Shown here: positions 1 through 12,826 of the stretch, one piece after another
Numbering within the stretch: position 1 is the first letter of the stretch
Layout: each line of letters begins with the position of its first letter
The notes under the pieces: generated by a model
The model's database searches: none
The model's input: the letters and a program-made list of their open reading frames with translations, nothing else
Told to the model about the DNA's origin: nothing
Virus record (IMG/VR): IMGVR_UViG_2585427758_000013
Source of the DNA: a virus
Taxonomy: Duplodnaviria; Heunggongvirae; Uroviricota; Caudoviricetes
Direction: 5' to 3' (one strand)
DNA: 12,826 nucleotides
Program-made: the position numbers and the translations under genes

Positions 1-1293
<1,293 letters not shown>

Positions 1294-1470: not shown

Positions 1471-1504
1471 CCAAAAAGAAAACCCGCAGTTTTTACGCTG
1501 CGGG
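1471..1504 (-). terminator. rho-independent terminator for the minus-strand hok-like transcript
   Basis: On the minus strand: stem cccgcag / ctgcggg (1483-1489 and 1498-1504) followed by TTTTCTTTTT (complement of 1471-1482). Lies about 95 nt 3' of the hok-like stop. Confidence 0.5.
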
Positions 1505-1598
1505 CTTGTTGTTCACGTCAACTGGAAATAGGGTGTCTTTTCGACCTTTACCCTGGCAACCGATTGACGGGGAAGTTGCCTTCCCCGTCGCGGTTTCC

Positions 1599-1739
1599 TT
1601 ACTGCTTACACTGTAAGAACGCCGCAAACTCCGCTCCCCAGAAACTCATCCGTATTTCACACAGCGAACCGTGCAGCATCCAGATGATGAGGATTGCCGT
1701 CACGCAGAACGTGATGGCCGTAAGCGATTTTTGCGACAT
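1599..1739 (-). CDS. hok: Hok/Gef-family type I toxin (46 aa small membrane peptide)
   Basis: Hand translation of the minus strand from ATG at 1739-1737 gives MSQKSLTAITFCVTAILIIWMLHGSLCEIRMSFWGAEFAAFLQCKQ, stop TAA at 1601-1599. It has a hydrophobic N-terminal helix, the SLCEIR motif and an AAF...C-terminal tail as in Hok/HokA/RelF. AAGGAG Shine-Dalgarno 8 nt upstream. Not in the supplied ORF track (too short). Confidence 0.6.
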   Translation of the reverse strand: MSQKSLTAITFCVTAILIIWMLHGSLCEIRMSFWGAEFAAFLQCKQ

Positions 1740-1869
1740 AGCACTTGCTCCTTTTCCGGAGAGGCGCTAACCTTTCACTTGTCAAGGTAATGCGGTTAGG
1801 GCCTCGGTTAAACAGAGATGTTTTCCGGGGCCTTTCCACATCTGGCCTTCGGGTATTCCCTCCGACCAT
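1657..1869 (-). CDS. mok: Mok-like overlapping reading frame (70 aa)
   Basis: 70-aa ORF in a different frame that starts upstream of the hok-like gene and ends inside it, the arrangement seen in hok/mok/sok loci. No strong Shine-Dalgarno; the exact start is uncertain. Confidence 0.4.
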   Translation of the reverse strand: MVGGNTRRPDVERPRKTSLFNRGPNRITLTSERLAPLRKRSKCYVAKIAYGHHVLRDGNPHHLDAARFAV

Positions 1870-1929
1870 CAGCCGAAAGGCACCCGCGCGTAATCTATCG
1901 CGTTTTTGTTACTCCGGCAATTCTGCCTG

Positions 1930-2190
1930 TTAATTCTGAGATAAAGGCAAACTCATCTGATTGTTTCCCCTGTGTGAAGCTGGCAACTCATGCCACGGGA
2001 TACCTTCTGAAGAGTGAACGCCGGGGGCGTGTTTCGATGTGAATTTATGGAAAGCTTCCAGTGTTGAGAAACTTATGCCGCATTCCAGGTTGTTACACTG
2101 GTAATATTTTTTCCGTACGGTGTTTGAATCATTTTCCGAACGACTGGTGCGGATACGGGCAGATGCGCCACAAAGCGGACAACGGAACAT
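1930..2190 (-). CDS. ogr: Ogr/Delta-family zinc-finger late-gene transcriptional activator
   Basis: 86-aa ORF beginning MFRCPLCGASARIRTSR...YYQCNNLECGISF: the CPLC...QCxNxxC zinc-finger signature and MF.CPLC N-terminus of P2 Ogr. Lies directly downstream of gpD on the same strand, as in P2. Confidence 0.8.
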   Translation of the reverse strand: MFRCPLCGASARIRTSRSENDSNTVRKKYYQCNNLECGISFSTLEAFHKFTSKHAPGVHSSEGIPWHELPASHRGNNQMSLPLSQN

Positions 2191-2230
2191 AGCGACCTCC
2201 CTTAACGTGGTGCTGCCTATTCTAAGTTGC

Positions 2231-3340
2231 TCACTCTGTTTCCGCTATCCATTCCGGGATTTTTGCCTCAAGCTCAAGCTGCGTGGTAAAACCGCTGTTA
2301 TCAATGGTGTGCTCGGCTTTTGCAATGATCCAGTCCTGATTATCAATCTCGCTTTTAAATCCTGTTACCGTGCCATGCATTTCGGGGTAGAGTTCTGCAC
2401 GTCCACGCGCCAGCGTGATGGAGAATGATGCGGCTCCGCGTTGTAGTTGCTGCCACTTTGCCGCCGCTGCGCGTCTTGCTGTCTGCTCGTTCTGATAAGT
2501 CTTGCGTAACACAAACACATTGCCTTCCGCGCCTTCCATATAATCACCTTCACGGCTGCTGCTTTTCTCCTTTTTGGGTTTTGGCGGTTTACGGCGTTTC
2601 ACGCTGACTTTTTTCTTTTTCCCGTAATTAAGATCAAGCCAGTAAGCGCGTACCCCCGTATACGCTTCGCGGTCAGCAATGCGGAACTGATGGCGATCGC
2701 CGCTGCTGCGTGTGATGGCAAACGATGGCAACGGCTGGCCCTGTGCGTTCACGCCACCGCCGGGCATGATGAATAACAGATTACCGCTTTTTACCGTGGT
2801 GATTGCGCCCAGCATTTCCGCCATGCGCGTAAGGAAGGACATGTCGCTTTCTTCGGTCTGGTCGGCGTGGTCGATTTCGATATCCATCAGCATTTCGCTG
2901 ATTTGCGGTTTCAGACCATACCGATGAGCGATGGCGGATACCACACGCTCAACGGTCACATCATGCCAGGACACCTCACGTTTAACGTTAAATTCATCCC
3001 GAAAATCTGCGCTTCTGGCTGAAACAGTCAGCCTGTCCGGCGGTCCTTCGTGAGCGATTTCATCAACAATGTAAGTGCCTTTTTCTGTCAGCGGTTCTCC
3101 TTTCCAGCCAATGAGAACCGTCAGGCGCGCGCCCCGTGGCGGTAGCTGCAACTGACCATCCGCATCATCCAGCGTGATGGTGAGCTGGTCCGCCTCAAAT
3201 CCCCGGTTGTCGGTCAGTGACAGGCTCATCAGGCACTCTGCCACGCCTGACAGCGTTTTACCCTCCGCGAGAATATCAAAATCCGGCATTTTCACGGGGT
3301 CTGTGCCCTGACTGAGCAATTGCATGGTGGTGTCGGTCAT
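2231..3340 (-). CDS. D: P2 gpD-family tail protein (late control gene D)
   Basis: Translation carries gpD-family blocks (IDHADQTEESD, RAYW, KWQQLQRG, GFKSEIDNQDW). The ORF track extends to 3472, but the likely start is the ATG at 3340-3338 (MTDTTMQLL), which is preceded by GGAGGGAG. Confidence 0.85.
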   Translation of the reverse strand: MTDTTMQLLSQGTDPVKMPDFDILAEGKTLSGVAECLMSLSLTDNRGFEADQLTITLDDADGQLQLPPRGARLTVLIGWKGEPLTEKGTYIVDEIAHEGPPDRLTVSARSADFRDEFNVKREVSWHDVTVERVVSAIAHRYGLKPQISEMLMDIEIDHADQTEESDMSFLTRMAEMLGAITTVKSGNLLFIMPGGGVNAQGQPLPSFAITRSSGDRHQFRIADREAYTGVRAYWLDLNYGKKKKVSVKRRKPPKPKKEKSSSREGDYMEGAEGNVFVLRKTYQNEQTARRAAAAKWQQLQRGAASFSITLARGRAELYPEMHGTVTGFKSEIDNQDWIIAKAEHTIDNSGFTTQLELEAKIPEWIAETE

Positions 3341-3497
3341 CTGCTCCCTCCCTGTGCGGCATGGTCGCATGTGCGTGCGGAGGGGGTTACTGCTTTTTGT
3401 TGTCGCCGTGGCGGGAGAACGGCGCAGGGGGGAGATTACGCGCGTGGTGGGTGATGATTGTTGCCGAATCATTTAACGGATACAAGGGGCTGAAGCT

Positions 3498-4682
3498 ATG
3501 AGTGAAACTCGTTTTCATGGTGCCCGTGTTACGGAAAGTACCGACCTGGTAACAGCGATTAACGATGTTGATTCCAGCGTTATCGGTATCGTGGCAACGG
3601 CGGATGATGCGGACGCGAAGCTGTTCCCGCTGAACAAGCCCACACTGCTGACCCGCGTCAATGACGTGCTGGGAAAATGCGGGACAACGGGGACGCTTTA
3701 TCGTGCGCTTAAGGCCATCGCAGACCAGGTGAGCACAAAGGTGATCGTCGTTCGCGTGGCTGAACACAAAGAAGAAAACGGAAAGACGCAGGATCAACTG
3801 GTTATCGGTGGTTCTGAATCTGACGGCAGCTATACGGGGATGTATGCGCTGCTTGTTGCAGAGCAGGATGAAAGCATCGGATACCGTCCGCGTATTCTGG
3901 CCGCGCCGGAGCTGGACACGGAGGCGGTGACAAAATCCCTGTGCGTGATTGCGGGTAAACTGCGCGCGTTTGTGTATGCCGCATGTCATGGTTGTAACAC
4001 GATGGCTGAGGCGATTACCTACCGCCAGAAATTCAACGAACGTGAGGTGATGCTCTTATGGCCTGACTTCATCGCCTACAACCCGAAAAGTGGCAAAAAC
4101 GAAACGTTCCCCGCGCCTGCTTATGCGTGCGGCCTTCGTGCGTACATTGACCATGAGCAGGGCTGGCACAAATCGCTGTCCAACGTTCCGGTTAAAAATG
4201 TGCTGGGGATGTCGAGGCATGTGTTCTGGTCGTTACAGGCCGAAGACAGTGATGCCAACAGCCTCAACAACAAAGAAATCACGACCATTATTCGTCGTAA
4301 CGGGTTCCGCTTCTGGGGCAACCGCACACCGGAAACGAACGCCTACATCTTTGAGGTGTATACCCGAACCGCACAGGTGCTGGCTGATTCAATTGCGGAA
4401 GCGCAGTTTGAAACCATCGACAGTCCACTGACGCCTGCGAACGTGAAGGATGTTATCAGTGCCATCAGGGCAAAACTGGATTCGCTGGTTACTGCCGGGA
4501 AACTGATTGGCGCGGAGTGCTGGTATGACGTGGTGGATAACGGCACCACGGATTTACGTCAGGGACGTGTGCGTATTCGCTACAAATATACGCCCGTTCC
4601 GCCACTGGAAGACATGGAGCTTTACCAGACGTTTACTGATGAATTCTTTGGTCCCGCATTTGCGGTGCTGGGAGGTGCCTGA
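3498..4682 (+). CDS. FI: contractile tail sheath protein (P2 gpFI family)
   Basis: 394-aa ORF with sheath-family blocks (LRAFVYAA, WPDF, EQGWHKSLSNV, RRNGFRFWGNRT, YKYTPVPPLE). AAGGGG Shine-Dalgarno upstream of the ATG. Confidence 0.9.
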   Translation: MSETRFHGARVTESTDLVTAINDVDSSVIGIVATADDADAKLFPLNKPTLLTRVNDVLGKCGTTGTLYRALKAIADQVSTKVIVVRVAEHKEENGKTQDQLVIGGSESDGSYTGMYALLVAEQDESIGYRPRILAAPELDTEAVTKSLCVIAGKLRAFVYAACHGCNTMAEAITYRQKFNEREVMLLWPDFIAYNPKSGKNETFPAPAYACGLRAYIDHEQGWHKSLSNVPVKNVLGMSRHVFWSLQAEDSDANSLNNKEITTIIRRNGFRFWGNRTPETNAYIFEVYTRTAQVLADSIAEAQFETIDSPLTPANVKDVISAIRAKLDSLVTAGKLIGAECWYDVVDNGTTDLRQGRVRIRYKYTPVPPLEDMELYQTFTDEFFGPAFAVLGGA

Positions 4683-5194
4683 TGGCTGTACCAAAACATC
4701 TTCGCTTTTTTACGCTGTTTGTGGATGGTGAAAACGAAGTGGGTAAGGTGACGTCCGTCACTCTGCCTAAGCTGACGCGCAAAACCGACAGCTACCGGGG
4801 TGGTGGCATGATGGGGGCGGTAAGTATTGATCTCGGTCTGGACGACTCCGCGCTTGATGCGAGCTTTGTCATGGGGGGAGCTGTTCGTGCGCTGTTCCTT
4901 AAATATGGCGGCACGATTGACGGCACGCTGCTGCGTTTTGCGGGTGAATACTACACCGATGCAGAAAGCGATCTGTATGAAATCGAGATGCGCGGGCGTG
5001 TGACGGAAATTGATATGGGGGAGGCCAAACAGGGCGAAGCCACATCACACACTTACGCTGTCAAAAACACCTACTACAAGCTGAGCGTTAACGATCGCCC
5101 GCTGTGGGAAATCGACCTGTTGAACCACATCTACCGGAAGGACGGCAAGGACATTGTGCCCGATCGCATCCGTTCCGCGCTCGGGCTTGGCTGA
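4682..5194 (+). CDS. FII: tail tube protein (P2 gpFII family)
   Basis: 170-aa ORF directly after the sheath gene. Its start overlaps the FI stop (TGATG); GGAGGTG Shine-Dalgarno. Size and position match P2 FII. Confidence 0.88.
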   Translation: MAVPKHLRFFTLFVDGENEVGKVTSVTLPKLTRKTDSYRGGGMMGAVSIDLGLDDSALDASFVMGGAVRALFLKYGGTIDGTLLRFAGEYYTDAESDLYEIEMRGRVTEIDMGEAKQGEATSHTYAVKNTYYKLSVNDRPLWEIDLLNHIYRKDGKDIVPDRIRSALGLG

Positions 5195-5248
5195 TAAGTA
5201 ATATGCAGGCGGCGCAGTGCGTCGCCTCTGACTGAAAGGAGTTTCCTG

Positions 5249-5614
5249 ATGAAAGAGACGAAAAACATCGATACCGAAAACACGGTAGTTACTGACACTG
5301 TGAAAGAAACCAGTGAGCGTGGCGTAAAACTTACCCAACCAATTGAGCGAGGCGGCGAAAAAATCACGTATGTGGAGATCACCGGGGCTATTGAGCAGGC
5401 TGGATCTCTGCGAGATTTGTCGCTGTCTGATGTGCTGAATCTGAAAGCGGAATCCATGTTTACGCTGCTGTCACGCGTGACCTCGCCACGACTGGATGAA
5501 GTGACGATCAAAAAAATGGCATCCCGTGATTTTATTCAGTTATGTGTGGTTGCCGTAAATTTTTTGAGCGGTGCGGACTCTGGCGGGAAGAGCGAACAGG
5601 CGACGGAAGCCTGA
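5249..5614 (+). CDS. E: tail assembly chaperone (P2 gpE family), frame-0 product
   Basis: 121-aa ORF with AAAGGAG Shine-Dalgarno, located between the tube and tape-measure genes. Contains an internal slippery run (see 5560-5566). Confidence 0.8.
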   Translation: MKETKNIDTENTVVTDTVKETSERGVKLTQPIERGGEKITYVEITGAIEQAGSLRDLSLSDVLNLKAESMFTLLSRVTSPRLDEVTIKKMASRDFIQLCVVAVNFLSGADSGGKSEQATEA

Positions 5615-5778
5615 TCACGGTTGTGTGCTTTGAGCACATAGAAGACTTTGTGGCGGATATTGCCGCCATTTTTAACTGGTCGCCCGCCGAAATCTTCATG
5701 ATGACGCCCGGCGAAGTGGTTAGCTGGCGTGAGCGGGCGGCACTTCGCAGCGGGAATGCAGACAATGAAGACTCTTGA
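5249..5778 (+). CDS. E': E+E' fusion chaperone made by programmed -1 ribosomal frameshift
   Basis: A -1 slip on T6G (5560-5566) moves the E frame into ORF 5542-5778 (...NFF-ERCGLWREER...). The E' frame ends at TGA 5776-5778, overlapping the tape-measure start. Same logic as P2 E/E' and lambda G/GT. Confidence 0.65.
5560..5566 (+). other. slippery heptamer TTTTTTG (recoding signal for E/E')
   Basis: Six T followed by G at 5560-5566, in frame so that AAT-TTT-TTG can slip back one base. Confidence 0.6.
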
Positions 5779-8572
5779 TATCCGGGTCGCTTTCAGCGCC
5801 GTTGACAGGCTGACCCGGCCTGCCGAAAACGCCCGCCGCCTGATGGGGCAGTTTGGTGACTCCATCCAGCGAACGCAGGGGGCGATCAAAAATCTCGAGC
5901 GTCAGGCGCGATCATTTGAGCGCGCCCGCGACGCTGTCAGTAAAGCGGATGCGGGTATCGTGAAAGCACGACGCCAGCTTAACGCCCTTAATCAGTTACA
6001 ACGCACGGGTACAGTGCTCAGCGAAAAACAACAAAAGCTGATGCAGCAGTTAAGCACCCGGCTTGAACGCCTGAATGAATCGCGCACACGGGAAATTCAG
6101 AAAATGCGGGAGCTTGGCGGAGAGCTGAAACGCCACGGCATTTCCCTGACAGGCAGCGATAACACCATCCAGCAGGCCATCAGACGCACCGAACAGTACA
6201 ACAACCAGCTTGAACGCGAACGGCAGGCGCTTGCGCGTGTAACGCGGGCGCGTGAGCGGTATTCGCGCGCGCAGGAAACCGCGGGAAAACTGAAAACAGG
6301 TGGTGCGCTGGCAATTGGTGCGGCAGCGGCGGGCGGCTATGCTGCCGGGCGTTTTTTGCAGCCTGCGATCGGGTTCGGCAAAGAGATGTCCCGCGTTCAG
6401 GCACTGACGCGAATCGACAAAAACAGCCCGCAGTTTAAGGCGCTGCGTGAGCAGGCGTTAAAACTTGGCTCTGAAACACAGTTTACTGCGAGTGATGCCG
6501 CCAGTGGGCAGAGCTTTCTGGCAATGGCTGGTTTTACTCCGCAGGCCATTCAGGCCGCATTGCCCGGTGTTCTTAATATGGCGCTGGCAGGTGGCGTCGA
6601 ACTCGGCGAGACGGCGGATATAGGCTCCAATATCCTCACACAGTTCAACCTGACAGCCGATCAAATGGACCGGGTTGGCGATACGCTGACAGCGGCATTC
6701 ACCCGGACCAATACTGATTTACGCGCGCTGGGCGAAACCATGAAGTATACCGGTCCGGTTGCCGCAAAACTTGGTATCAGTCTTGAAGAAGCGGCGGCTA
6801 TGGCCGGGATGCTTGCCAATAATGGTCTTCGCGGAAGCGATGCTGGCACGGCCATGCGCGCAAGTCTGTCCCGCCTTGCATCACCGCCAAAAGCTGCGGC
6901 TGATGCACTGAAAGAGCTGGGGGTGTCAGTTGCTGACGCCAGAGGCAAAATGCGCCCGATGGAGGATGTGCTGCTTGATCTCTATAAGGCGACACAAAAA
7001 TACGGACAGGTGGACCAGGTCTCCTTCTTCAAGGACATCGCCGGAGAAGAGGCGTTCGTTGGTTTGCAGACGCTTGTTGCGGCGGCTGGTTCAGGAGAGC
7101 TGCAAAAACTGACCAGAGAATTGCAGGGGGCAAGGGGAGAGGCCGATCGCGTTGCAAAAGTAATGGCCGATAATCTTGATGGGGACCTGAAAAATCTCGA
7201 CAGCGCATGGGAAGGTCTTCGTATTCGCATCAGTGATCTGGTTGACGGTCCGCTGCGTTCTGTCACGCAGTGGCTCACGCGGGTGCTTGAAAAAATCACC
7301 TCGCTGGCGCAGGCCCATCCGGTACTGACGCGCCAGCTACTGATAGCAGGCGGTGCGTTGCTGGCAATGACTGCAACGATTGGCTCGTTGTCACTGGTTA
7401 TTGGGGTGCTTTACGGGAAGCTGGCCACCCTGCGTCTTGGTTTTGACATTCTTACCCGGTCAATGAATGTCGTCAGGGTGTTGCCTGCGCTGTGGGGAAT
7501 GGTGACGGGTTCCGTTTCTTTGCTGGGAGGCGCTATCGGGGCGCTGTTCAGTCCGGTTGGTCTTATCGTGGCTGCGCTTGCCGGAGCTGCCGTTCTTATC
7601 TGGAAATACTGGGATCCCATCAGGGCATTTTTTGCCGGGGTGTTCAGCGGGATTATGGAAAGGCTGAACCCGTTGCGTGAAACCTTTGAACGGTTTGGTC
7701 CTGTTTTTGACGCAATCGGAAGCGGGATCAGCCAGGTGTTTAACTGGTTTAAATCGCTGCTGTCACCGATGGAGTCCAGCAAGGAAACGCTGGATAAATG
7801 TACCAGTGCTGGCGAGATATTCGGTAACGCTCTTGGTGGCGCGCTACAGCTTGTTCTGACGCCTGCAAAAATGTTGCTGGATACGCTGGCGTGGATACTT
7901 GAAAAACTCGGTGTGCTTCCGGATGAAGCGGAAAGGGCGAGAAAGAAAATCGAAGACGCACAGCGTGCGGCCATTCTTCAGGACAAGGTTGCTCTGTTTC
8001 AGGGAGACATTGCGAAAATCAATCCGCCGAAGTCTGCGGAAAATGGCAATGGCACCGGAGGCGATAAACCCAAAGACAACAAACCGCTCACAGACAGCAA
8101 TACCGGCACGCTACGCAGACTCAGCAAAATTGCTGATAACACAGGTAAGCTGGTTGATGAGACAAAAAAACGTATTGGCCCCGGCGATATTGTCTTTAAG
8201 AACCTGCCCCGCGCACTTGCTGTTCGTGGGGAGTGGCAGGAGCGGAAGATTGCACAGGTCAGTAAGCCTGCCCCCGCAATGAATATCACCCCCGTGGTCC
8301 CGGCTCCGCTGCCTCCGGCGCTGGTCCCTGTTGTTGCGGCCAGCTCCCGCCCGGTGGCGGAGGCCATACGATCTCCAGTGGCATCAGTTCCTGTAACTTC
8401 CCGTAACCGGGAGCCTGTTGCCTCCGGATTTGGTGGTGAAATTCATGTTCATCTGCATAACGTTGTTACGCAGAATCCCCGCGAACTGGCGAAACTGGTC
8501 GGTGAAATGGTCAGGGCAGAAATGGAACGGCGCGCCCGTGCCGGGCGTGGCAGTTTTTACGATAAAGATTGA
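5756..8572 (+). CDS. T: tail tape measure protein (P2 gpT family)
   Basis: Very long ORF with a coiled-coil N-terminal third, central hydrophobic/Gly-Ala-rich segments and a Pro/Val-rich C-terminus, placed after E/E'. The ORF track starts at a GTG at 5729; ATGs at 5756 and 5765 are alternative starts, so the start is uncertain. Confidence 0.88.
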   Translation: MQTMKTLDIRVAFSAVDRLTRPAENARRLMGQFGDSIQRTQGAIKNLERQARSFERARDAVSKADAGIVKARRQLNALNQLQRTGTVLSEKQQKLMQQLSTRLERLNESRTREIQKMRELGGELKRHGISLTGSDNTIQQAIRRTEQYNNQLERERQALARVTRARERYSRAQETAGKLKTGGALAIGAAAAGGYAAGRFLQPAIGFGKEMSRVQALTRIDKNSPQFKALREQALKLGSETQFTASDAASGQSFLAMAGFTPQAIQAALPGVLNMALAGGVELGETADIGSNILTQFNLTADQMDRVGDTLTAAFTRTNTDLRALGETMKYTGPVAAKLGISLEEAAAMAGMLANNGLRGSDAGTAMRASLSRLASPPKAAADALKELGVSVADARGKMRPMEDVLLDLYKATQKYGQVDQVSFFKDIAGEEAFVGLQTLVAAAGSGELQKLTRELQGARGEADRVAKVMADNLDGDLKNLDSAWEGLRIRISDLVDGPLRSVTQWLTRVLEKITSLAQAHPVLTRQLLIAGGALLAMTATIGSLSLVIGVLYGKLATLRLGFDILTRSMNVVRVLPALWGMVTGSVSLLGGAIGALFSPVGLIVAALAGAAVLIWKYWDPIRAFFAGVFSGIMERLNPLRETFERFGPVFDAIGSGISQVFNWFKSLLSPMESSKETLDKCTSAGEIFGNALGGALQLVLTPAKMLLDTLAWILEKLGVLPDEAERARKKIEDAQRAAILQDKVALFQGDIAKINPPKSAENGNGTGGDKPKDNKPLTDSNTGTLRRLSKIADNTGKLVDETKKRIGPGDIVFKNLPRALAVRGEWQERKIAQVSKPAPAMNITPVVPAPLPPALVPVVAASSRPVAEAIRSPVASVPVTSRNREPVASGFGGEIHVHLHNVVTQNPRELAKLVGEMVRAEMERRARAGRGSFYDKD

Positions 8573-8578
8573 GGAGTC

Positions 8579-9073
8579 ATGGCCATGATGATGATCTACG
8601 GCATGTTTGTTTTTGAGCTGCGTACGTTGCCGCATCAGCAGTTACAGCAAAACAAAAGCTGGCGGCATGTGAAAAATGAACGCGTTAACCGTTCAGCAAG
8701 CTGGCAGTATATCGGGGCAGGCGATGATCGCATCGTTCTTTCTGGTGTGCTTTATCCTGAAATTACAGGTGGCGAAGTGTCGCTTTCGTTGCTGACCACG
8801 CAGGCATATACAGGACGCCCCTGGCCTCTGATTGATGGTGTCGGGCAGATTTACGGCATGTATGTCCTGACCGGAACGAATACGACCCGCTCCGAGTTTG
8901 ATCGCTACGGTAAGGCGAAAAAGATAGAGTTTTCACTGACTCTTGAACGCTGTGATGAGGATTTGCGGGAGCGCCTGCAATCCTCATCGTTCAGTGATAT
9001 GCTGTCCGGCTTCAAAGATAAGGTCACATCATCCCTTAACAGCGCGGCCAGCTCCGTTAAAGGGCTGTTTTGA
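8579..9073 (+). CDS. U: tail protein gpU family
   Basis: 164-aa ORF immediately after the tape measure. GAGGAG precedes it; ATGs at 8579, 8585, 8588 and 8591 are all possible starts. Confidence 0.8.
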   Translation: MAMMMIYGMFVFELRTLPHQQLQQNKSWRHVKNERVNRSASWQYIGAGDDRIVLSGVLYPEITGGEVSLSLLTTQAYTGRPWPLIDGVGQIYGMYVLTGTNTTRSEFDRYGKAKKIEFSLTLERCDEDLRERLQSSSFSDMLSGFKDKVTSSLNSAASSVKGLF

Positions 9074-9080
9074 TTAACGC

Positions 9081-9110
9081 AAAACCGCTAATGGTCAGAT
9101 TAGCGGTTTT
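9081..9110. terminator. bidirectional hairpin between convergent gpU and invertase
   Basis: aaaaccgctaat-ggtcag-attagcggtttt: a perfect 10-bp stem flanked by A-run and T-run. The invertase stop codon (9100-9102) lies inside the stem. Confidence 0.6.
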
Positions 9111-9699
9111 CATTTTCCTGAGTCTGCCTGGTTGTTTCTTCAGCCTGTATATCGCCTACAGGGTGATAACGATAAATCGTCGATATGCCGATGTCGTAAA
9201 TGATCGCCAGTTGTTTCCTGTCATGACCGTTTTTAATCAGCCTCGCTATTTGCTCGTGTTGTTCTTTTGTCAACTTCGGGCGACGTCCGCCAATGCGTCC
9301 TTGTGCGCGTGCTGCTGCCAGCCCGGCCAGTGTACGCTCTACAATTAATTCACGTTCCATTTCGGCTAAAGCCCCCATGACGTGAAAAAAGAAACGCCCC
9401 ATGGGTGTTGATGTGTCAATGCTGTCCGTCAGACTACGGAAATTAACACCTTTTTCCCGCAATTCCTCAATAAGCGTGATCAGGTGTTTCATACTTCTGC
9501 CCAGTCTGTCCAGCTTCCAGACAACCAGCGTATCTCCTTCTGATAGCGTTCTGAGCAGTTTTTTCAATCCCGGTCTGGCTGATTTCGTTCCGCTGATTTT
9601 ATCTTCAAAAATCAGTTCACATCCTGCGCAGTTCAGTGCATTGCGTTGTAAATCCGTGTTCTGGTCATTTGTTGACACACGAACATAGCCAATTTGCAT
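9100..9699 (-). CDS. serine-recombinase DNA invertase (Hin/Gin/Pin/Cin family)
   Basis: N-terminus MQIGYVRVSTNDQNTDLQRNAL with the catalytic Ser in the GYVRVST block, then TLVVWKLDRLGRSMKHL, FFHVMGALAEMERELI and a C-terminal helix-turn-helix. AGAGGA Shine-Dalgarno 8 nt before the ATG at 9699; the longer ORF to 9894 is probably an upstream extension. Confidence 0.9.
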   Translation of the reverse strand: MQIGYVRVSTNDQNTDLQRNALNCAGCELIFEDKISGTKSARPGLKKLLRTLSEGDTLVVWKLDRLGRSMKHLITLIEELREKGVNFRSLTDSIDTSTPMGRFFFHVMGALAEMERELIVERTLAGLAAARAQGRIGGRRPKLTKEQHEQIARLIKNGHDRKQLAIIYDIGISTIYRYHPVGDIQAEETTRQTQENENR

Positions 9700-9753
9700 A
9701 AAAAACATCCTCTTTGTTTCGTGAAAAATACATAGTTGGTATAGGTAGGGATA

Positions 9754-9779
9754 AAAACGAAAACGTTGGTTTGGGGGAA
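9754..9779 (+). other. putative invertase crossover site 1 (hix/gix-like, 12-2-12)
   Basis: aaaacgaaaacg TT ggtttgggggaa. The inner ...GAAAACG-TT-GGTTT... matches the AAAACC-AA-GGTTT dyad of hix/gix-type sites as I recall them. Confidence 0.55.
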
Positions 9780-10277
9780 GGTTCTGCGCTGCCTGTTGGT
9801 GTGCCCGTTCCGTGGCCCTCAGCAACACCACCAACGGGCTGGCTGAAATGTAACGGCGCAGCATTTTCTTCTGAAATGTATCCCGGACTGGCAAAGGCTT
9901 ACCCCACCAATAAATTACCGGATTTACGGGGTGAATTTATTCGTGGCTGGGATGATGGACGTAGTGCGGATGCGGGGAGAACAATATTATCCGCTCAAGG
10001 TGATGCCATACGTAATATCTATGGTGAGTTCAAGACTGTAAACACTGAAAATTATTCAATATGGGAATCAGTAGGCTCGTTTAAGGGGGCAGTGGTGCCT
10101 TTAAATTCCTCAACAAACAATAGTTATTTCTCCTTAGTCAGAAGTATGGTGACAGAAAGGACAGACGGCGCTGTTTACCCAAAAGTGATTGGCCTTGATG
10201 CTTCAAAAATTGTTCCAACTGCAAACGAAAACCGCCCACGCAACATTGCGTTTAATTACATCGTAAGGGCAGCATGA
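9754..10277 (+). CDS. silent tail-fibre C-terminal (receptor-binding tip) cassette 1; no start codon of its own
   Basis: Frame opens through crossover site 1 as ...ENVGLGEGSALPVGVPVPWPSATPPTGWLKCNGAAFS...PDLRGEFIRGWDDGR, then a unique core, then the conserved end NRPRNIAFNYIVRAA and stop. Sequence upstream of the site is invertase promoter, not fibre coding. Confidence 0.75.
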
Positions 10278-10296
10278 AAACGTTGGTTTGGGGGAA
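10271..10296 (+). other. putative invertase crossover site 2
   Basis: agcatgaaaacg TT ggtttgggggaa. It spans the stop codon of cassette 1 and the first codons of cassette 2. Confidence 0.55.
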
Positions 10297-10821
10297 GGCT
10301 CTGCACTGCCCGTTGGTGTACCTGTTCCGTGGCCCTCAGCCACTCCACCAACGGGCTGGCTGAAATGCAACGGCGCAGCATTTTCTCCTGAAGATTACCC
10401 CAAACTGGCACAGGCTTACCCCGCGAACAAATTACCGGATCTACGGGGTGAATTTATCCGTGGCTGGGATGATGGACGTGGCTTGGATGCTGGGCGTGCC
10501 TTGCTAAGTCTTCAGGATGACTCTTTTGAAGCGCACAGGCATGAGTCCTTTTTTTATGCGGGTATTTCACGTAATGAGATCCCATTAAAAAATCTTCCAA
10601 GTTCAGACGAGATGCTGACTTTAAGTTCCACAACTAATGCCTTGTCCCCGGACGATATTGATGCCACCAACTCGTTAATTGGTAATGACGATTACAACTG
10701 TCTTATCGAAGGGAATAAAAATAACAAACGAACAGCGACAGGACTGAGTACCAGTATTGTCGGCACAGCAGAAACACGCCCCCGCAACGTTGCATTCAAT
10801 TACATCGTAAGAGCCGCATGA
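10288..10821 (+). CDS. silent tail-fibre tip cassette 2 (gene segment; frame is open from 10267 through site 2)
   Basis: Same conserved N-module and C-terminal TRPRNVAFNYIVRAA around a unique core carrying an HRH motif. The M in the ORF track is a TTG inside the crossover site, not a real start. Confidence 0.75.
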   Translation: MGEGSALPVGVPVPWPSATPPTGWLKCNGAAFSPEDYPKLAQAYPANKLPDLRGEFIRGWDDGRGLDAGRALLSLQDDSFEAHRHESFFYAGISRNEIPLKNLPSSDEMLTLSSTTNALSPDDIDATNSLIGNDDYNCLIEGNKNNKRTATGLSTSIVGTAETRPRNVAFNYIVRAA

Positions 10822-10840
10822 AAACGTTGGTTTGGGGAAA
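10815..10840 (+). other. putative invertase crossover site 3
   Basis: cgcatgaaaacg TT ggtttggggaaa (one substitution in the outer right half). Confidence 0.55.
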
Positions 10841-11260
10841 GGCTCTGCGCTGCCCGTTGGTGTGCCCGTTCCGTGGTCCTCAGCAACACCACCAACGGGC
10901 TGGCTGAAATGTAACGGCGCAGCATTTTCTTCTGAAATGTATCCCGGACTGGCAAAGGCTTACCCCACCAATAAATTACCGGATTTACGGGGTGAATTTA
11001 TCCGTGGCTGGGATGATGGGCGCGGGATTGATGCGGGACGTACCCTGCTTTCAGGGCAGGATGGTACAAGTTTTTCTCATTACGGAGGTAATTTCGACAT
11101 TGGGTCTGGTCATTCAATCAATAACTATGACCAAATTGTTTCTAACCAACCAAGCTTTTCCCGTTTTTCATTTGCAGGACCTTCACGAGGTGATGGGGTC
11201 AATTATGTAACCATTCGTCCTCGTAATATTGCGTTTAATTACATCGTAAGGGCAGCATGA
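10832..11260 (+). CDS. silent tail-fibre tip cassette 3 (gene segment)
   Basis: Conserved N-module (nearly identical in DNA to cassette 1), short unique core, conserved C-terminal RPRNIAFNYIVRAA. Confidence 0.75.
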   Translation: MGKGSALPVGVPVPWSSATPPTGWLKCNGAAFSSEMYPGLAKAYPTNKLPDLRGEFIRGWDDGRGIDAGRTLLSGQDGTSFSHYGGNFDIGSGHSINNYDQIVSNQPSFSRFSFAGPSRGDGVNYVTIRPRNIAFNYIVRAA

Positions 11261-11279
11261 AAACGTTGGTTTGGGGGAA
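11254..11279 (+). other. putative invertase crossover site 4
   Basis: agcatgaaaacg TT ggtttgggggaa, identical to site 2. Confidence 0.55.
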
Positions 11280-11747
11280 GGCTCTGCACTGCCCGTTGGT
11301 GTGCCTGTTCCATGGCCCTTAGCAACACCACCAACGGGCTGGCTGAAATGTAACGGTGCAGCATTTTCTTCTGAAATGTACCCCAAACTGGCAAAAGCCT
11401 ACCCCACTAATAAATTACCGGATTTACGCGGAGAATTTATCCGTGGCTGGGATGATGGGCGAGGAATTGATGCGGCACGCGCTTTATTGAGCATTCAAAA
11501 CGGGATGTTGGAAAAACACCGCCATATTGTTGTAGCTAACGATGGATATGACACAAAAGATGAATGGGAGTTGGCTACGATTTTCAAAAAAACATATACA
11601 CAAGGCAGGGGGCTTGATGCCACAAATACAGGAGGGAGTTTGATTCCATCACCAACGCTTCATTCACGAGGAAGTATTGGTAACACAGGTGGTAGTGAAA
11701 CCCGCCCCCGCAATATTGCATTTAACTATATCGTGAGGGCGGCTTAG
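11271..11747 (+). CDS. silent tail-fibre tip cassette 4 (gene segment)
   Basis: Conserved N-module, unique core with HRH motif, conserved C-terminal ETRPRNIAFNYIVRAA. Stop TAG at 11745-11747, convergent with the tfa stop 6 bp away. Confidence 0.75.
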   Translation: MGEGSALPVGVPVPWPLATPPTGWLKCNGAAFSSEMYPKLAKAYPTNKLPDLRGEFIRGWDDGRGIDAARALLSIQNGMLEKHRHIVVANDGYDTKDEWELATIFKKTYTQGRGLDATNTGGSLIPSPTLHSRGSIGNTGGSETRPRNIAFNYIVRAA

Positions 11748-11753
11748 TTATAT

Positions 11754-12365
11754 TCAACTGGCTGCTGCCAGTGGTATTTCCGGCAAGTTGATATCTGGTA
11801 CCATGTTTATATCCATTGCGTTCAGCGCGTCTATATAATCCAGCACGGCATTAAGCCGGGTGGTTTCTGCCTGCGTCAACTTCCGCCCGGCCTGCAACTT
11901 CAACTGAATCAGACTTATGGAAGCCATTGCCGCATCAGCCAGTGACTGGCGCTTGGTTTCTGCCGCTTCTACTGCGGCACGATGTTGTGCCTCAGTATCT
12001 GTCACCCATTTTTCACCATCCCATTTATCGTATGGTGTTAACGGGGCGATAGTGGTTGTAGTTTTCGGGTAGTCACCCAGCGCCGTGATTTCTTCGGTGT
12101 TTCCCGTGTCAGTGCTATAGACGGTTTCACCACGATGGTCTGGCGCATACTCCCATGAACTTAAATTCTCCGAACGGCGGATAGCATAGCCCGCTTTATG
12201 TGCGCCCGGGGCATCTAAACAGGAATTTGCCGGAATACCGACACCCACAGCAAGATATTCAGTTGATTCGGAAATATATTCCCGTGTCTCACCATCATAG
12301 TTATAAACGACGATGTTTCCTGCCTGTACGGCAATAAGGTCATCATTTAATATCGCGTTATTCAT
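11754..12365 (-). CDS. tail fibre assembly protein / chaperone (Tfa; P2 gpG or Mu U-like)
   Basis: 203-aa ORF whose ATG overlaps the stop of cassette 5 (TAATG), i.e. translationally coupled. C-terminal region (...LNAVLDYIDALNAMDINMVPDINLPEIP) resembles the conserved Tfa C-terminus. Confidence 0.8.
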   Translation of the reverse strand: MNNAILNDDLIAVQAGNIVVYNYDGETREYISESTEYLAVGVGIPANSCLDAPGAHKAGYAIRRSENLSSWEYAPDHRGETVYSTDTGNTEEITALGDYPKTTTTIAPLTPYDKWDGEKWVTDTEAQHRAAVEAAETKRQSLADAAMASISLIQLKLQAGRKLTQAETTRLNAVLDYIDALNAMDINMVPDINLPEIPLAAAS

Positions 12366-12826
12366 TATGCGGTTCTCACAATATAATTGAAGGCAATATT
12401 GCGTGGGCGGTTTTCATTCCCATCTGAGGATTCCGTTCTGTATTGACTGGTAAATCTACCGTTAATTGCACCTTGCCGGACGGCGTTATCTGTCGACAAC
12501 AGACTATCCCCTCTTTTGTCATTTGGCACCAGTACCGTGTTATCCCACGCATCCCATGACCGAATATTATGATAATGACTTCCTGTTAACCACCCCTGCA
12601 TGCTTAAGATGCCCCTTCCGGCATCCACCCCGCGCCCATCATCCCAGCCACGGATAAACTCACCGCGTAAATCAGGTAATTTTAACGTTGGGTAAACCTT
12701 TGCCAGATTTGGGTACATTTCAGAAGAAAATGCTGCACCGTTACATTTCAGCCAGCCCGTTGGTGGTGTGGCTGAGGGCCATGGAACAGGCACACCAACG
12801 GGCAGTGCAGAGCCTTCCCCCAAACC
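12365..12826 (-). CDS. expressed-position tail-fibre tip cassette 5; 3' part of the tail fibre gene, 5' end beyond the window
   Basis: Same conserved N-module (GEGSALPVGVPVPWPSATPPTGWLKCNGAAFS...) and C-terminus (RPRNIAFNYIVRTA) around a unique core with an HYH motif. The reading frame continues upstream off the window, so this is the C-terminus of a longer H-like fibre gene. Confidence 0.8.
   Translation of the reverse strand, partial: GLGEGSALPVGVPVPWPSATPPTGWLKCNGAAFSSEMYPNLAKVYPTLKLPDLRGEFIRGWDDGRGVDAGRGILSMQGWLTGSHYHNIRSWDAWDNTVLVPNDKRGDSLLSTDNAVRQGAINGRFTSQYRTESSDGNENRPRNIAFNYIVRTA
12815..12826 (-). other. right half of putative crossover site 5 (inverted orientation; core and left half lie beyond the window end)
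   Basis: The window ends ...ttcccccaaacc, the reverse complement of ggtttgggggaa. The core dinucleotide would be the next two bases past the window. Confidence 0.5.

Follow-up and report, generated by a model that had tools for sequence, protein, structure and literature searches.

The window, by which we mean the whole 12,826-nucleotide stretch of DNA that was analyzed, carries a set of phage tail genes laid out on both strands, as follows.

1-1293, plus strand: serS, at the left end of the window
1930-2190, minus strand: ogr, zinc-finger late-gene activator (Pfam Ogr_Delta, E=1e-15; phrog_603)
2231-3340, minus strand: D, baseplate hub/late control protein D, 369 aa (phrog_52, E=5e-166; Pfam Phage_GPD)
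3341-3497, no strand: divergent D/FI intergenic (control) region, 157 bp
3498-4682, plus strand: FI, tail sheath (phrog_23, E=2e-125; Pfam sheath domains)
4682-5194, plus strand: FII, tail tube (Pfam Phage_tube, E=8e-46)
5249-5614, plus strand: E (phrog_103)
5249-5778, plus strand: E+E' product via -1 frameshift (slippery heptamer; overlapping -1 ORF 5542-5778)
5765-8572, plus strand: T, tape measure protein (phrog_28; Pfam PhageMin_Tail)
8579-9073, plus strand: U, tail protein, final gene of the inverted block (Pfam Phage_P2_GpU, E=1.5e-38)
9074-9099: convergent gap between U and the invertase gene, 26 bp
9081-9110, no strand: hairpin with a 12-bp stem, preceded by an A-run and followed by a T-run (terminator scan)
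9100-9699, minus strand: serine DNA invertase of the Hin/Gin/Pin type (phrog_125, E=3e-100; Pfam Resolvase and HTH_7)
9714-11747, plus strand: four fibre C-terminal cassettes
11754-12365, minus strand: tfa (Pfam Caudo_TAP and Collar, matched by tfa and the fibre end jointly)
12365-12823, minus strand: 3' end of the expressed fibre gene (same joint Pfam matches)

The Pfam and PHROG matches for FI, FII, E, T, U, D, and ogr make up a complete P2-like (Peduoviridae) tail core set, in which ogr lies 3' of D on the same strand. These gene identities and strands had been proposed in a sequence-only reading of the window, and the open reading frames and both sets of matches bear them out. Its limits for the D/FI region and the U/invertase gap also stand, with an adjustment at the D start, where the start codon occupies 3340-3338 rather than beginning at 3341; this start agrees with the P88 annotation, and a ribosome-binding site (GGAGGGAG) lies before it. 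A longer D open reading frame reaching 3472 was rejected as the gene. For T, the reading frame is open from 5729, and the chosen start at 5765 corresponds to that annotated in P88. The E/E' frameshift is predicted from the heptamer T TTT TTG at 5560-5566, which is in the E frame. The invertase N terminus reads MQIGYVRVS, and an Rfam search of the window at the gathering threshold gave no matches. The reference orientation is given by tfa and the fibre end, which share their strand with D and ogr; relative to it, the 5.6-kb FI-U block is on the strand opposite to its neighbours on both sides.

The P2 record places H, G, FI, FII, E, T, U, D, and ogr on a single strand, and D directly follows U there. 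Comparison of strands with this record confirms that the window order is not that of P2, as had been suggested, with FI-U opposite to D, ogr, tfa, and the fibre gene; that the block, bounded by tfa/invertase on one side and D on the other, is flipped in place; and that this leaves a divergent D/FI control region at one end and a convergent U end at the other. The contrast is one of annotation and gene-order comparison rather than of statistical chance. The likeness to P2 is nonetheless extensive, although the tail proteins are only 32-49% identical to those of P2 (D 49%, FI 45%). The window has the gene set of the P2 F operon (pF-FI-FII-E-E'-T-U-D, then ogr), the same T TTT TTG frameshift device that is annotated for P2 E/E', an Ogr-type activator together with a TGT-N12-ACA-type dyad ∼82-88 nt upstream of FI, and ogr following D beside the att end. 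Unlike in P2, FI-U is on the strand opposite to D, ogr, H, and G, and the contents of the flipped block are exactly the P2 pF-operon genes minus D. With FI-U flipped relative to D, the F operon no longer ends in D, which therefore needs a promoter of its own.

The closest relatives show that this order is not peculiar to the window. Phage P88 matches positions 1473-9693 in one collinear alignment with identical strands and 93.3% identity, in a comparison confined to the part of the prophage (∼11 kb) that lies within the window, and phage 500465-2 is 95.3% identical to the window at the nucleotide level. The D, FI, FII, and U proteins are 98.6%, 98%, 98%, and 100% identical to those of P88, and the ogr product is 92% identical to that of an unannotated P88 open reading frame. 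P88 and the window share the order H G / cassette / invertase / U T E FII FI (reverse strand) / D ogr. Across Xuanwuvirus (P88, P884B11, 500465-2, PhiR44_2, Chuche, and Citrobacter phiSM; 93-95% nucleotide identity), the gene order and strands over ogr-D-FI-FII-E-T-U-invertase are identical to those of the window in a single collinear alignment. P88 differs beyond ∼9693, where it has one inverted fibre/tfa cassette rather than the four fibre-tip cassettes of the window, and in its integration site, which in the window adjoins serS. Judged by these sequence matches, the window holds the right-hand end of a prophage of the P88-like group (Xuanwuvirus, Peduoviridae), which has integrated on the downstream side of serS.

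The flipped block extends beyond Xuanwuvirus. Searches with tblastn located it in Salmonella SEN4 (Senquatrovirus; SEN5 has a near-identical D match), Enterobacter phiT5282H (Novemvirus), Kp4860-2 (Reginaelenavirus, of which the type phage is Klebsiella 3LV2017), ST16-OXA48phi5.4 (Reipivirus), and Serratia KSP20, each with the same divergent FI/D arrangement and with protein identities of 47-76%; a single member of each of these further genera was checked. In a scan with one genome per species, all 61 loci with a D at least 61% identical have the flipped orientation (60 are classified as P88-type and the 61st, L125, is degraded), and all 19 loci with D at 49-54% identity are P2-type. The D/FI junction is contiguous in 1,358 of 5,426 complete Escherichia coli genomes, representing all but 16 of the 1,374 that match it. 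The opposite block orientation was not found among the related genomes, either at the E. coli junctions or at the 61 related loci. The flipped order is thus, across the genomes compared, the normal and fixed order of a large enterobacterial P2-like branch, and the synteny comparison identifies it as the standard order of a known and very common phage group. The idea that this particular locus had been rearranged does not survive, as the order is standard in the P88 group and in the 1,358 E. coli genomes. The only point in favour of a strain-specific rearrangement or an assembly error is the difference from P2; we give such a reading next to no chance, and it is already refuted by the same order and junctions in independently sequenced phages, the 1,358 complete E. 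coli genomes, and ∼60 other enterobacterial species. The order is in this sense already known from deposited genomes, and the papers describing P88, phiSM, SEN4, and Serratia PP4 do not mention an inversion. In a paper on Burkholderia P2-like phages, 'inverted' refers to IS elements there. Xenorhabdicin xnp1 was set aside as a model, as the variable region between its sheath and fibre genes suggests the P2 order.

The serine invertase gene abutting the U end raises the question as to whether FI-U is a large invertible segment, flipped now or recently by the adjacent enzyme. Hin/Gin/Pin-type invertases can act on secondary sites, which adds to the appeal of this explanation, and the window shares a homologous serine invertase with the Din-family segments (Mu G, P1 C, e14 P, and Salmonella H). 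However, we found no inverted repeats joining 3341-3497 with 9074-9099, the two places at which a check for inverted repeats or site-like sequences had been proposed. The 25-bp site at the cassette starts is present only at 9757, 10274, 10818, and 11257; its best match at the block ends has 12 mismatches in 25 positions, the level of random windows, and hix/gix consensus sequences matched nothing at ≤8 mismatches. Unlike the Din-family segments, FI-U is without flanking crossover sites and occurs in nature in one orientation only, with the identical contiguous D/FI junction in those 1,358 of 1,374 E. coli genomes. Moreover, the flip is present without an invertase beside U in SEN4, phiT5282H, Kp4860-2, and ST16-OXA48phi5.4, where tfa or other cargo faces U directly, and many E. 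coli copies of the locus have no invertase. The link between invertase and flip implied by the sequence-only reading is therefore not supported: the invertase adjoins the block but did not set its orientation, and its plausible role is with the fibre cassettes on its right. An invertible segment that is active now or was so recently is exceedingly unlikely and effectively refuted.

How the two orders are related depends on which is ancestral. A U+D fusion query of 50,697 phage records found U and D adjacent in 391 of 524 records, with one-strand adjacency in phages of Burkholderia, Ralstonia, Pseudomonas, Vibrio, Mannheimia, Aeromonas, and Acidovorax, and in E. coli phages ep3 and ECO1230-10, which we take to be Mu-like. 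A D at least 60% identical is present in only 48 phage records, and all of these that were sampled have U and D split; a scan of IMG/VR with D returned only relatives at least 99% identical, which are uninformative on polarity. It could be that the P88-type order came first and that the P2 order, with U directly followed by D, is derived, and the polarity argument does use outgroup gene order rather than a rooted phylogeny. We nonetheless regard this as highly improbable, given the one-strand U-D adjacency in lineages as distant as those from Burkholderia to ep3/ECO1230-10, and the restriction of the split order to one similarity cluster within Enterobacterales.

A past inversion had been offered as one of two possibilities, the other being an ancestral arrangement of a distinct P2-like lineage. 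A distinct lineage does exist, inasmuch as the flip is common to Xuanwuvirus, four further genera, and KSP20, and a past inversion is its most likely source; a single ancient in-place inversion is the most parsimonious origin. No breakpoint scar is detectable at the block ends, and the inversion event itself is therefore beyond reconstruction. The lack of a scar as proof, together with the mosaic nature of phage genomes, leaves room for a replacement in which a sheath-to-U module from some other contractile-tailed element was inserted in reverse. This is improbable: FI, FII, and U follow the identity gradient of D through P88, the Klebsiella and Enterobacter phages, SEN4, and P2, and the identities of D and FI are strongly correlated (r = 0.97 overall, 0.93 within the clade). 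The block also retains an Ogr dyad of the P2 type, at the distance from FI seen in P2, and its contents, the pF-operon genes without D, likewise argue against module replacement. Under the preferred in-place inversion, the inverted segment would have been [Ogr site - pF - FI ... U], with one breakpoint upstream of the pF activator site and the other between U and D, which in P2 adjoin without intergenic space, and the block and D would have been inherited together since. The inversion would have placed the palindromic Ogr-binding dyad of pF beside the 5' end of D.

The D/FI intergenic region is of similar length (151-157 bp) in seven phages (one for each of five genera, plus P88 and KSP20). 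An exact search of the window for TGT-N12-ACA gave nothing in this region, and a sigma-70 consensus scan of 3341-3497 gave no convincing promoter, as expected if the promoters are activator dependent. Three candidate elements are predicted here.

3361-3369, minus strand: predicted extended -10 of the D promoter, TGcGACCAT, 40-48 nt from the dyad centre
3401-3418, no strand: candidate Ogr-binding dyad TGTCGCCGTGGCGGGAGA, TGT-N12-AGA, centre at 3409.5
3453-3458, plus strand: predicted -10 of the FI promoter, GATGAT, 43-48 nt from the dyad centre

The candidate dyad, which surfaced only when one mismatch was allowed and relatives were compared, has a single mismatch to TGT-N12-ACA (AGA for ACA). 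Of 53 P88-type sequences, 50 carry a homologous dyad 78.5-88.5 nt upstream of the FI start codon, split evenly between ACA (25) and AGA (25) half-sites; the other three have no dyad within one mismatch. The P2 pF and pO sites are likewise imperfect, with CCA, and the pF dyad is 82.5 nt from the FI ATG. In the window, the ATG codons of D and FI are 69.5 and 88.5 nt from the dyad centre, and the D distance is 67.5-71.5 nt in most of 48 unique sequences. Anchoring these 48 sequences on the dyad reveals a conserved GAttAT/GAATAT/GATGAT block at +43 to +48 followed by gAAcTCA on the FI side, and, on the D side, the motif TG-n-(A/G)A(C/T)CAT, likewise conserved, 40-48 nt from the dyad centre; the -10-like blocks are thus mirror-placed 43-48 nt to either side of the dyad, with the TGn extension on the D side. 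From these positions, we predict transcription starts near 3465 for FI and near 3354 for D; the P2 pF start is 56.5-58.5 nt from its dyad centre.

This layout resembles that of P2 pP/pO, where one dyad lies between two divergent late genes and, in the P2 record, a single activator site serves both promoters with starts 55.5 nt to either side. The P/O intergenic region of P88 has the same TTGT-N12-AGAA motif, with ATG codons at 73.5 and 81.5 nt. The spacing of the window dyad and its -10-like blocks fit the same design, although pP/pO serves P and O, and in the window the genes are D and FI, with promoter function suggested by spacing and conservation. On these grounds, the single dyad probably drives both FI and D-ogr: it would be flanked by two divergent promoters, pF reading into FI-U and a new one reading into D-ogr, each starting ∼55 nt from the dyad centre as in pP/pO. 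We infer the starts, the Ogr dependence, and the shared use of the dyad from the same spacing and conservation. Two features fit less well. The D leader would be only ∼13-15 nt, which counts against the model, and it gives no account of a conserved box of alternating GC (CATGCGCGCGCG-like) that occupies positions 3368-3381, between the dyad and the D -10. At the other end of the block, the 9060-9125 region folds at -18.5 kcal/mol (z = -2.2), and the 9081-9110 hairpin is a probable bidirectional terminator between the convergent U and invertase genes, at which the FI-U transcript would end facing its neighbour. Taken as a whole, we consider it likely that the window has the normal order of a P88-like lineage that arose by one ancient in-place inversion, with the shared-dyad promoters a probable component deduced from the sequence comparisons.

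The flip opens no long-standing question, but it does bear on how these prophages are read. P2 is an invalid synteny template for some P2-like prophages, and the flipped order, present in roughly one in four complete E. coli genomes, should not be flagged as a rearrangement. It is a clean shared character of a large enterobacterial Peduoviridae branch that includes members of Xuanwuvirus, Novemvirus, Reginaelenavirus, Reipivirus, and Senquatrovirus, and it predicts a second bidirectional Ogr-dependent promoter. The further proposal, that the ancient inversion made a two-way unit out of a late operon read in one direction (pF-FI...U-D), with the Ogr site beside D driving both FI-U and D-ogr, has in our estimation an even chance of being correct. 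If it is, ogr would be under direct positive autoregulation through the D promoter, the locus would be a clean natural case of promoter capture by inversion around a symmetric activator site, and the arrangement would unite at least five Peduoviridae genera as a shared derived marker.

The window is P2-like in gene content, in its E/E' frameshift and, probably, in Ogr regulation, but its locus does not have the P2 gene order. Genes were mapped from an ORF listing and PHROG and Pfam scans:

Gene map of the window
1-1293, plus: serS, host gene
1599-1739, minus: Hok/Gef-type toxin ORF, 46 aa (Pfam HOK_GEF, E=4e-7)
1930-2190, minus: ogr
2231-3340, minus: D
3498-4682, plus: FI, sheath
4682-5194, plus: FII, tube
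5249-5614, plus: E
5560-5566, plus: T TTT TTG slippery site in E
end at 5778, plus: E' ORF, -1 frame
5765-8572, plus: T, tape measure
8579-9073, plus: U
9100-9699, minus: serine invertase
9714-11747, plus: four fibre-tip cassettes, direct repeats
11754-12365, minus: tfa
12365-12823, minus: 3' end of the fibre gene

Comparison of these ORFs and domains with the P2 record confirms the sequence-only reading that FI-U runs opposite to D-ogr on one side and to tfa-fibre on the other. The P2 order given there is also correct: in the P2 record V W J I H G, FI FII E E' T U D and ogr read in one direction, and D begins where U ends. For D, the gene and strand stand, but the start is 3340, not 3341; a long ORF reaching 3472 was rejected as gene D.

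Rearrangement of this locus itself is not borne out. In a megablast search of 50,697 phage records, window 1473-9693 aligns to Escherichia phage P88 as one collinear piece at 93.3% identity, and other Xuanwuvirus phages and Citrobacter phage phiSM align at 92-95%. The annotated strands of P88 equal those of the window: H and G (+), the inverted fibre/tfa cassette (-), the invertase (+), U, T, E', E, FII and FI (-), and D (+). P88 and phiSM are described as active temperate phages (PMC5285337; PMC6456863). When a 701-bp probe spanning the D|FI junction (window 3100-3800) was compared with 5426 complete E. coli genomes, it matched without a break in 1358 of them (99% of the 1374 with any match), including O157:H7, O104:H4 and ST131 strains, and no genome hinted at the opposite orientation. 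Both identity and order place the locus among the P88-like phages, and the FI-U flip is their ordinary synteny, standard in a well-known and very common group, which is the outcome that the sequence-only reading had named as refuting a rearrangement. The arrangement has been visible in deposited records since 2009 (Serratia phage KSP20), and the ICTV-classified genomes that were studied show it too; no comment on it was found in the literature that could be searched.

Two P88-like phage records, NC_049344.1 (520873) and NC_049341.1 (503458), carry an annotated IS100 (IS21-family) transposase and IstB in the match region, and in 520873 the tape measure and the sheath are each annotated there as two separate features; the IS100 element appears to interrupt the tail block, and both records probably represent defective prophages submitted as phages. 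The prophage/host boundary in the window lies about 160-180 bp 3' of serS (roughly 1412-1510), with phage similarity starting at 1462-1473, a probable serS terminator hairpin at 1412-1441 and a second hairpin at 1480-1507. Among the top E. coli matches listed, about half include serS and the rest begin at 1454-1540, so other integration sites are also used by this phage type. The Hok/Gef ORF, between ogr and the prophage end, is overlapped by a longer ORF (1657-1869, minus) that may be mok-like, and P88 has an annotated MokW-like gene at the matching place; no hok/sok RNA was found in the window with Rfam at the gathering threshold.

The flipped order extends well beyond P88. When a U+D fusion protein was used as query against the phage collection, U and D lay joined on the same strand in 391 of the 524 records that matched, among them phages of Burkholderia, Ralstonia, Pseudomonas, Vibrio, Mannheimia, Aeromonas and Acidovorax, and E. 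coli phages ep3 and ECO1230-10, which we take to be Mu-like. D is separate from U in every sampled record from the group with D at least 60% identical to that of the window; this group has 48 phage records, 13 at 90% or more and 35 at 60-80%. In fetched records of representative phages, with genes located by tblastn, U-T-E-FII-FI and D-ogr occupy opposite strands in Enterobacter phiT5282H (Novemvirus), Serratia KSP20, Klebsiella Kp4860-2 (Reginaelenavirus) and ST16-OXA48phi5.4 (Reipivirus), and Salmonella SEN4 (Senquatrovirus). Searching GTDB genomes, one per species, with a D alignment gave 80 loci, which were then classified. The P88-type orientation holds for all 61 in which D is 61-98% identical (60 classified as such, plus one degraded locus, L125, with FI on the same reversed strand), and all 19 with D at 49-54% have P2-type order. 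P88-type hosts span Enterobacterales: Salmonella, Citrobacter, Klebsiella, Enterobacter, Kosakonia, Pantoea, Erwinia, Brenneria, Pectobacterium, Symbiopectobacterium, Serratia, Yersinia, Hafnia, Edwardsiella, Morganella, Providencia, Xenorhabdus and Photorhabdus. Retention of U-D adjacency in all distant lineages, with the split order in one similarity cluster, makes it most likely that the P2 order came first and that the P88 order arose from it once.

One P88-type tail region (L089, NZ_JBQPOM010000071.1; D 98% identical to that of the window) is on a 226-kb contig labelled Vagococcus sp. WN89Y, a Firmicute, which probably reflects enterobacterial contamination or a wrong label. Several P88-type copies per genome occur in the insect-associated Symbiopectobacterium purcellii (L092, L094, L096) and Symbiopectobacterium sp. 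RP (L107, L109); L096 has a truncated FI match and FII-T-U matches shifted by about 1 kb, L107 and L109 are without the D|FI dyad described below, and the copies in this genus suggest decay or domestication.

D and the block proteins follow the same identity gradient across relatives:

Identity of window proteins to those of relatives
P88: D 98.6%; FI/FII/U 98/98/100%
Enterobacter, Klebsiella and Serratia phages: D 70-76%; FI/FII/U 60-75%
SEN4: D 63%; FI/FII/U 47-56%
P2: D 49%; FI/FII/U 43-46%

D and FI identities correlate at r = 0.97 over the 75 genome loci having both, and at r = 0.93 within the P88-type group. Apart from D, which it lacks, the block has exactly the gene set of the P2 F operon, and upstream of FI it keeps an activator dyad of P2 type, spaced as in P2. 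These features fit a single in-place inversion, whose two breakpoints would lie upstream of the pF activator site and at the U/D boundary; import of the block as a foreign module fits them poorly. No breakpoint scar was found in the window, where the inverted-repeat check yielded no repeat linking the two block ends.

Nor does the invertase account for the block's orientation, since the flip occurs without an invertase adjoining U in checked members of four genera (phiT5282H, Kp4860-2, ST16-OXA48phi5.4 and SEN4). Only 621 E. coli genomes have an intact U|invertase junction, versus 1358 for D|FI, which makes the invertase/cassette unit a variable accessory of P88-like prophages; in many E. coli genomes (e.g. 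O157:H7) similarity stops about 6 nt past the U stop codon. Each fibre cassette starts with a 25-bp sequence, ATGAAAACGTTGGTTTGGGGGAAGG, which occurs only at 9757, 10274, 10818 and 11257 and is likely the crossover site. At the block ends (3300-3540 and 9040-9140) its best matches have 12 mismatches in 25, no better than random tail-block windows (average 11.7). With neither flanking crossover-like sites nor an opposite orientation, the block fails both tests of a Din-type invertible segment and was rejected as one. The cassettes comprise a Collar domain and a variable tip, and each finishes with a conserved tail of about 47 nt; all four run opposite to the expressed fibre 3' end (12365-12826, minus), whereas P88 has a single inverted fibre/tfa cassette. 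The partner crossover site would be in the expressed fibre gene past the window end.

The intergenic region between D and FI measures 151-157 bp in all seven phages compared, and contains a conserved TTGT-N12-A(C/G)A dyad, a candidate site for the late-gene activator Ogr (window 3401-3418, TGTCGCCGTGGCGGGAGA, centre 3409.5). The right half-site is AGA, not ACA, in the window and likewise in half of its relatives. Fifty P88-type sequences (48 unique) were anchored on the dyad, which was not found within one mismatch in 3 of 53. From the dyad centre the distance to the FI ATG is 78.5-88.5 nt and that to the D ATG, in most anchored sequences, 67.5-71.5 nt; at P2 pF the distance to the FI ATG is 82.5 nt, and the mapped starts are 56.5-58.5 nt from the centre. 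The FI side has a conserved GAttAT/GATGAT block at a distance of 43-48 nt (window 3453-3458), with gAAcTCA after it, and on the D side TG-n-(A/G)A(C/T)CAT is conserved at the mirror position, 40-48 nt away (window 3369-3361, minus strand). This geometry resembles that of P2 pP/pO, where one annotated activator site serves both promoters and starts are 55.5 nt to each side of the dyad centre. The TTGT-N12-AGAA motif recurs in the P88 P|O region, where the ATGs are 73.5 and 81.5 nt off, compared with 69.5 and 88.5 nt at the window D|FI. From this spacing and the mirrored blocks, we propose that a single Ogr site may drive both FI and D-ogr. FI transcription is predicted to start near 3465, and that of D near 3354, with a 13-15 nt leader containing a GGAGGGAG ribosome-binding site. 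The promoter model does not account for the GC-alternating box that is conserved at 3368-3381, between dyad and predicted D -10 (most relatives have CATGCGCGCGCG, the window GCATGTGCGTGCGG). At the far end of the block, a hairpin with a 12-bp stem (9081-9110), with an A-run ahead and a T-run after, probably terminates both U and the invertase. The sole mildly new element is the putative second bidirectional Ogr-dependent promoter, which the inversion would have made.
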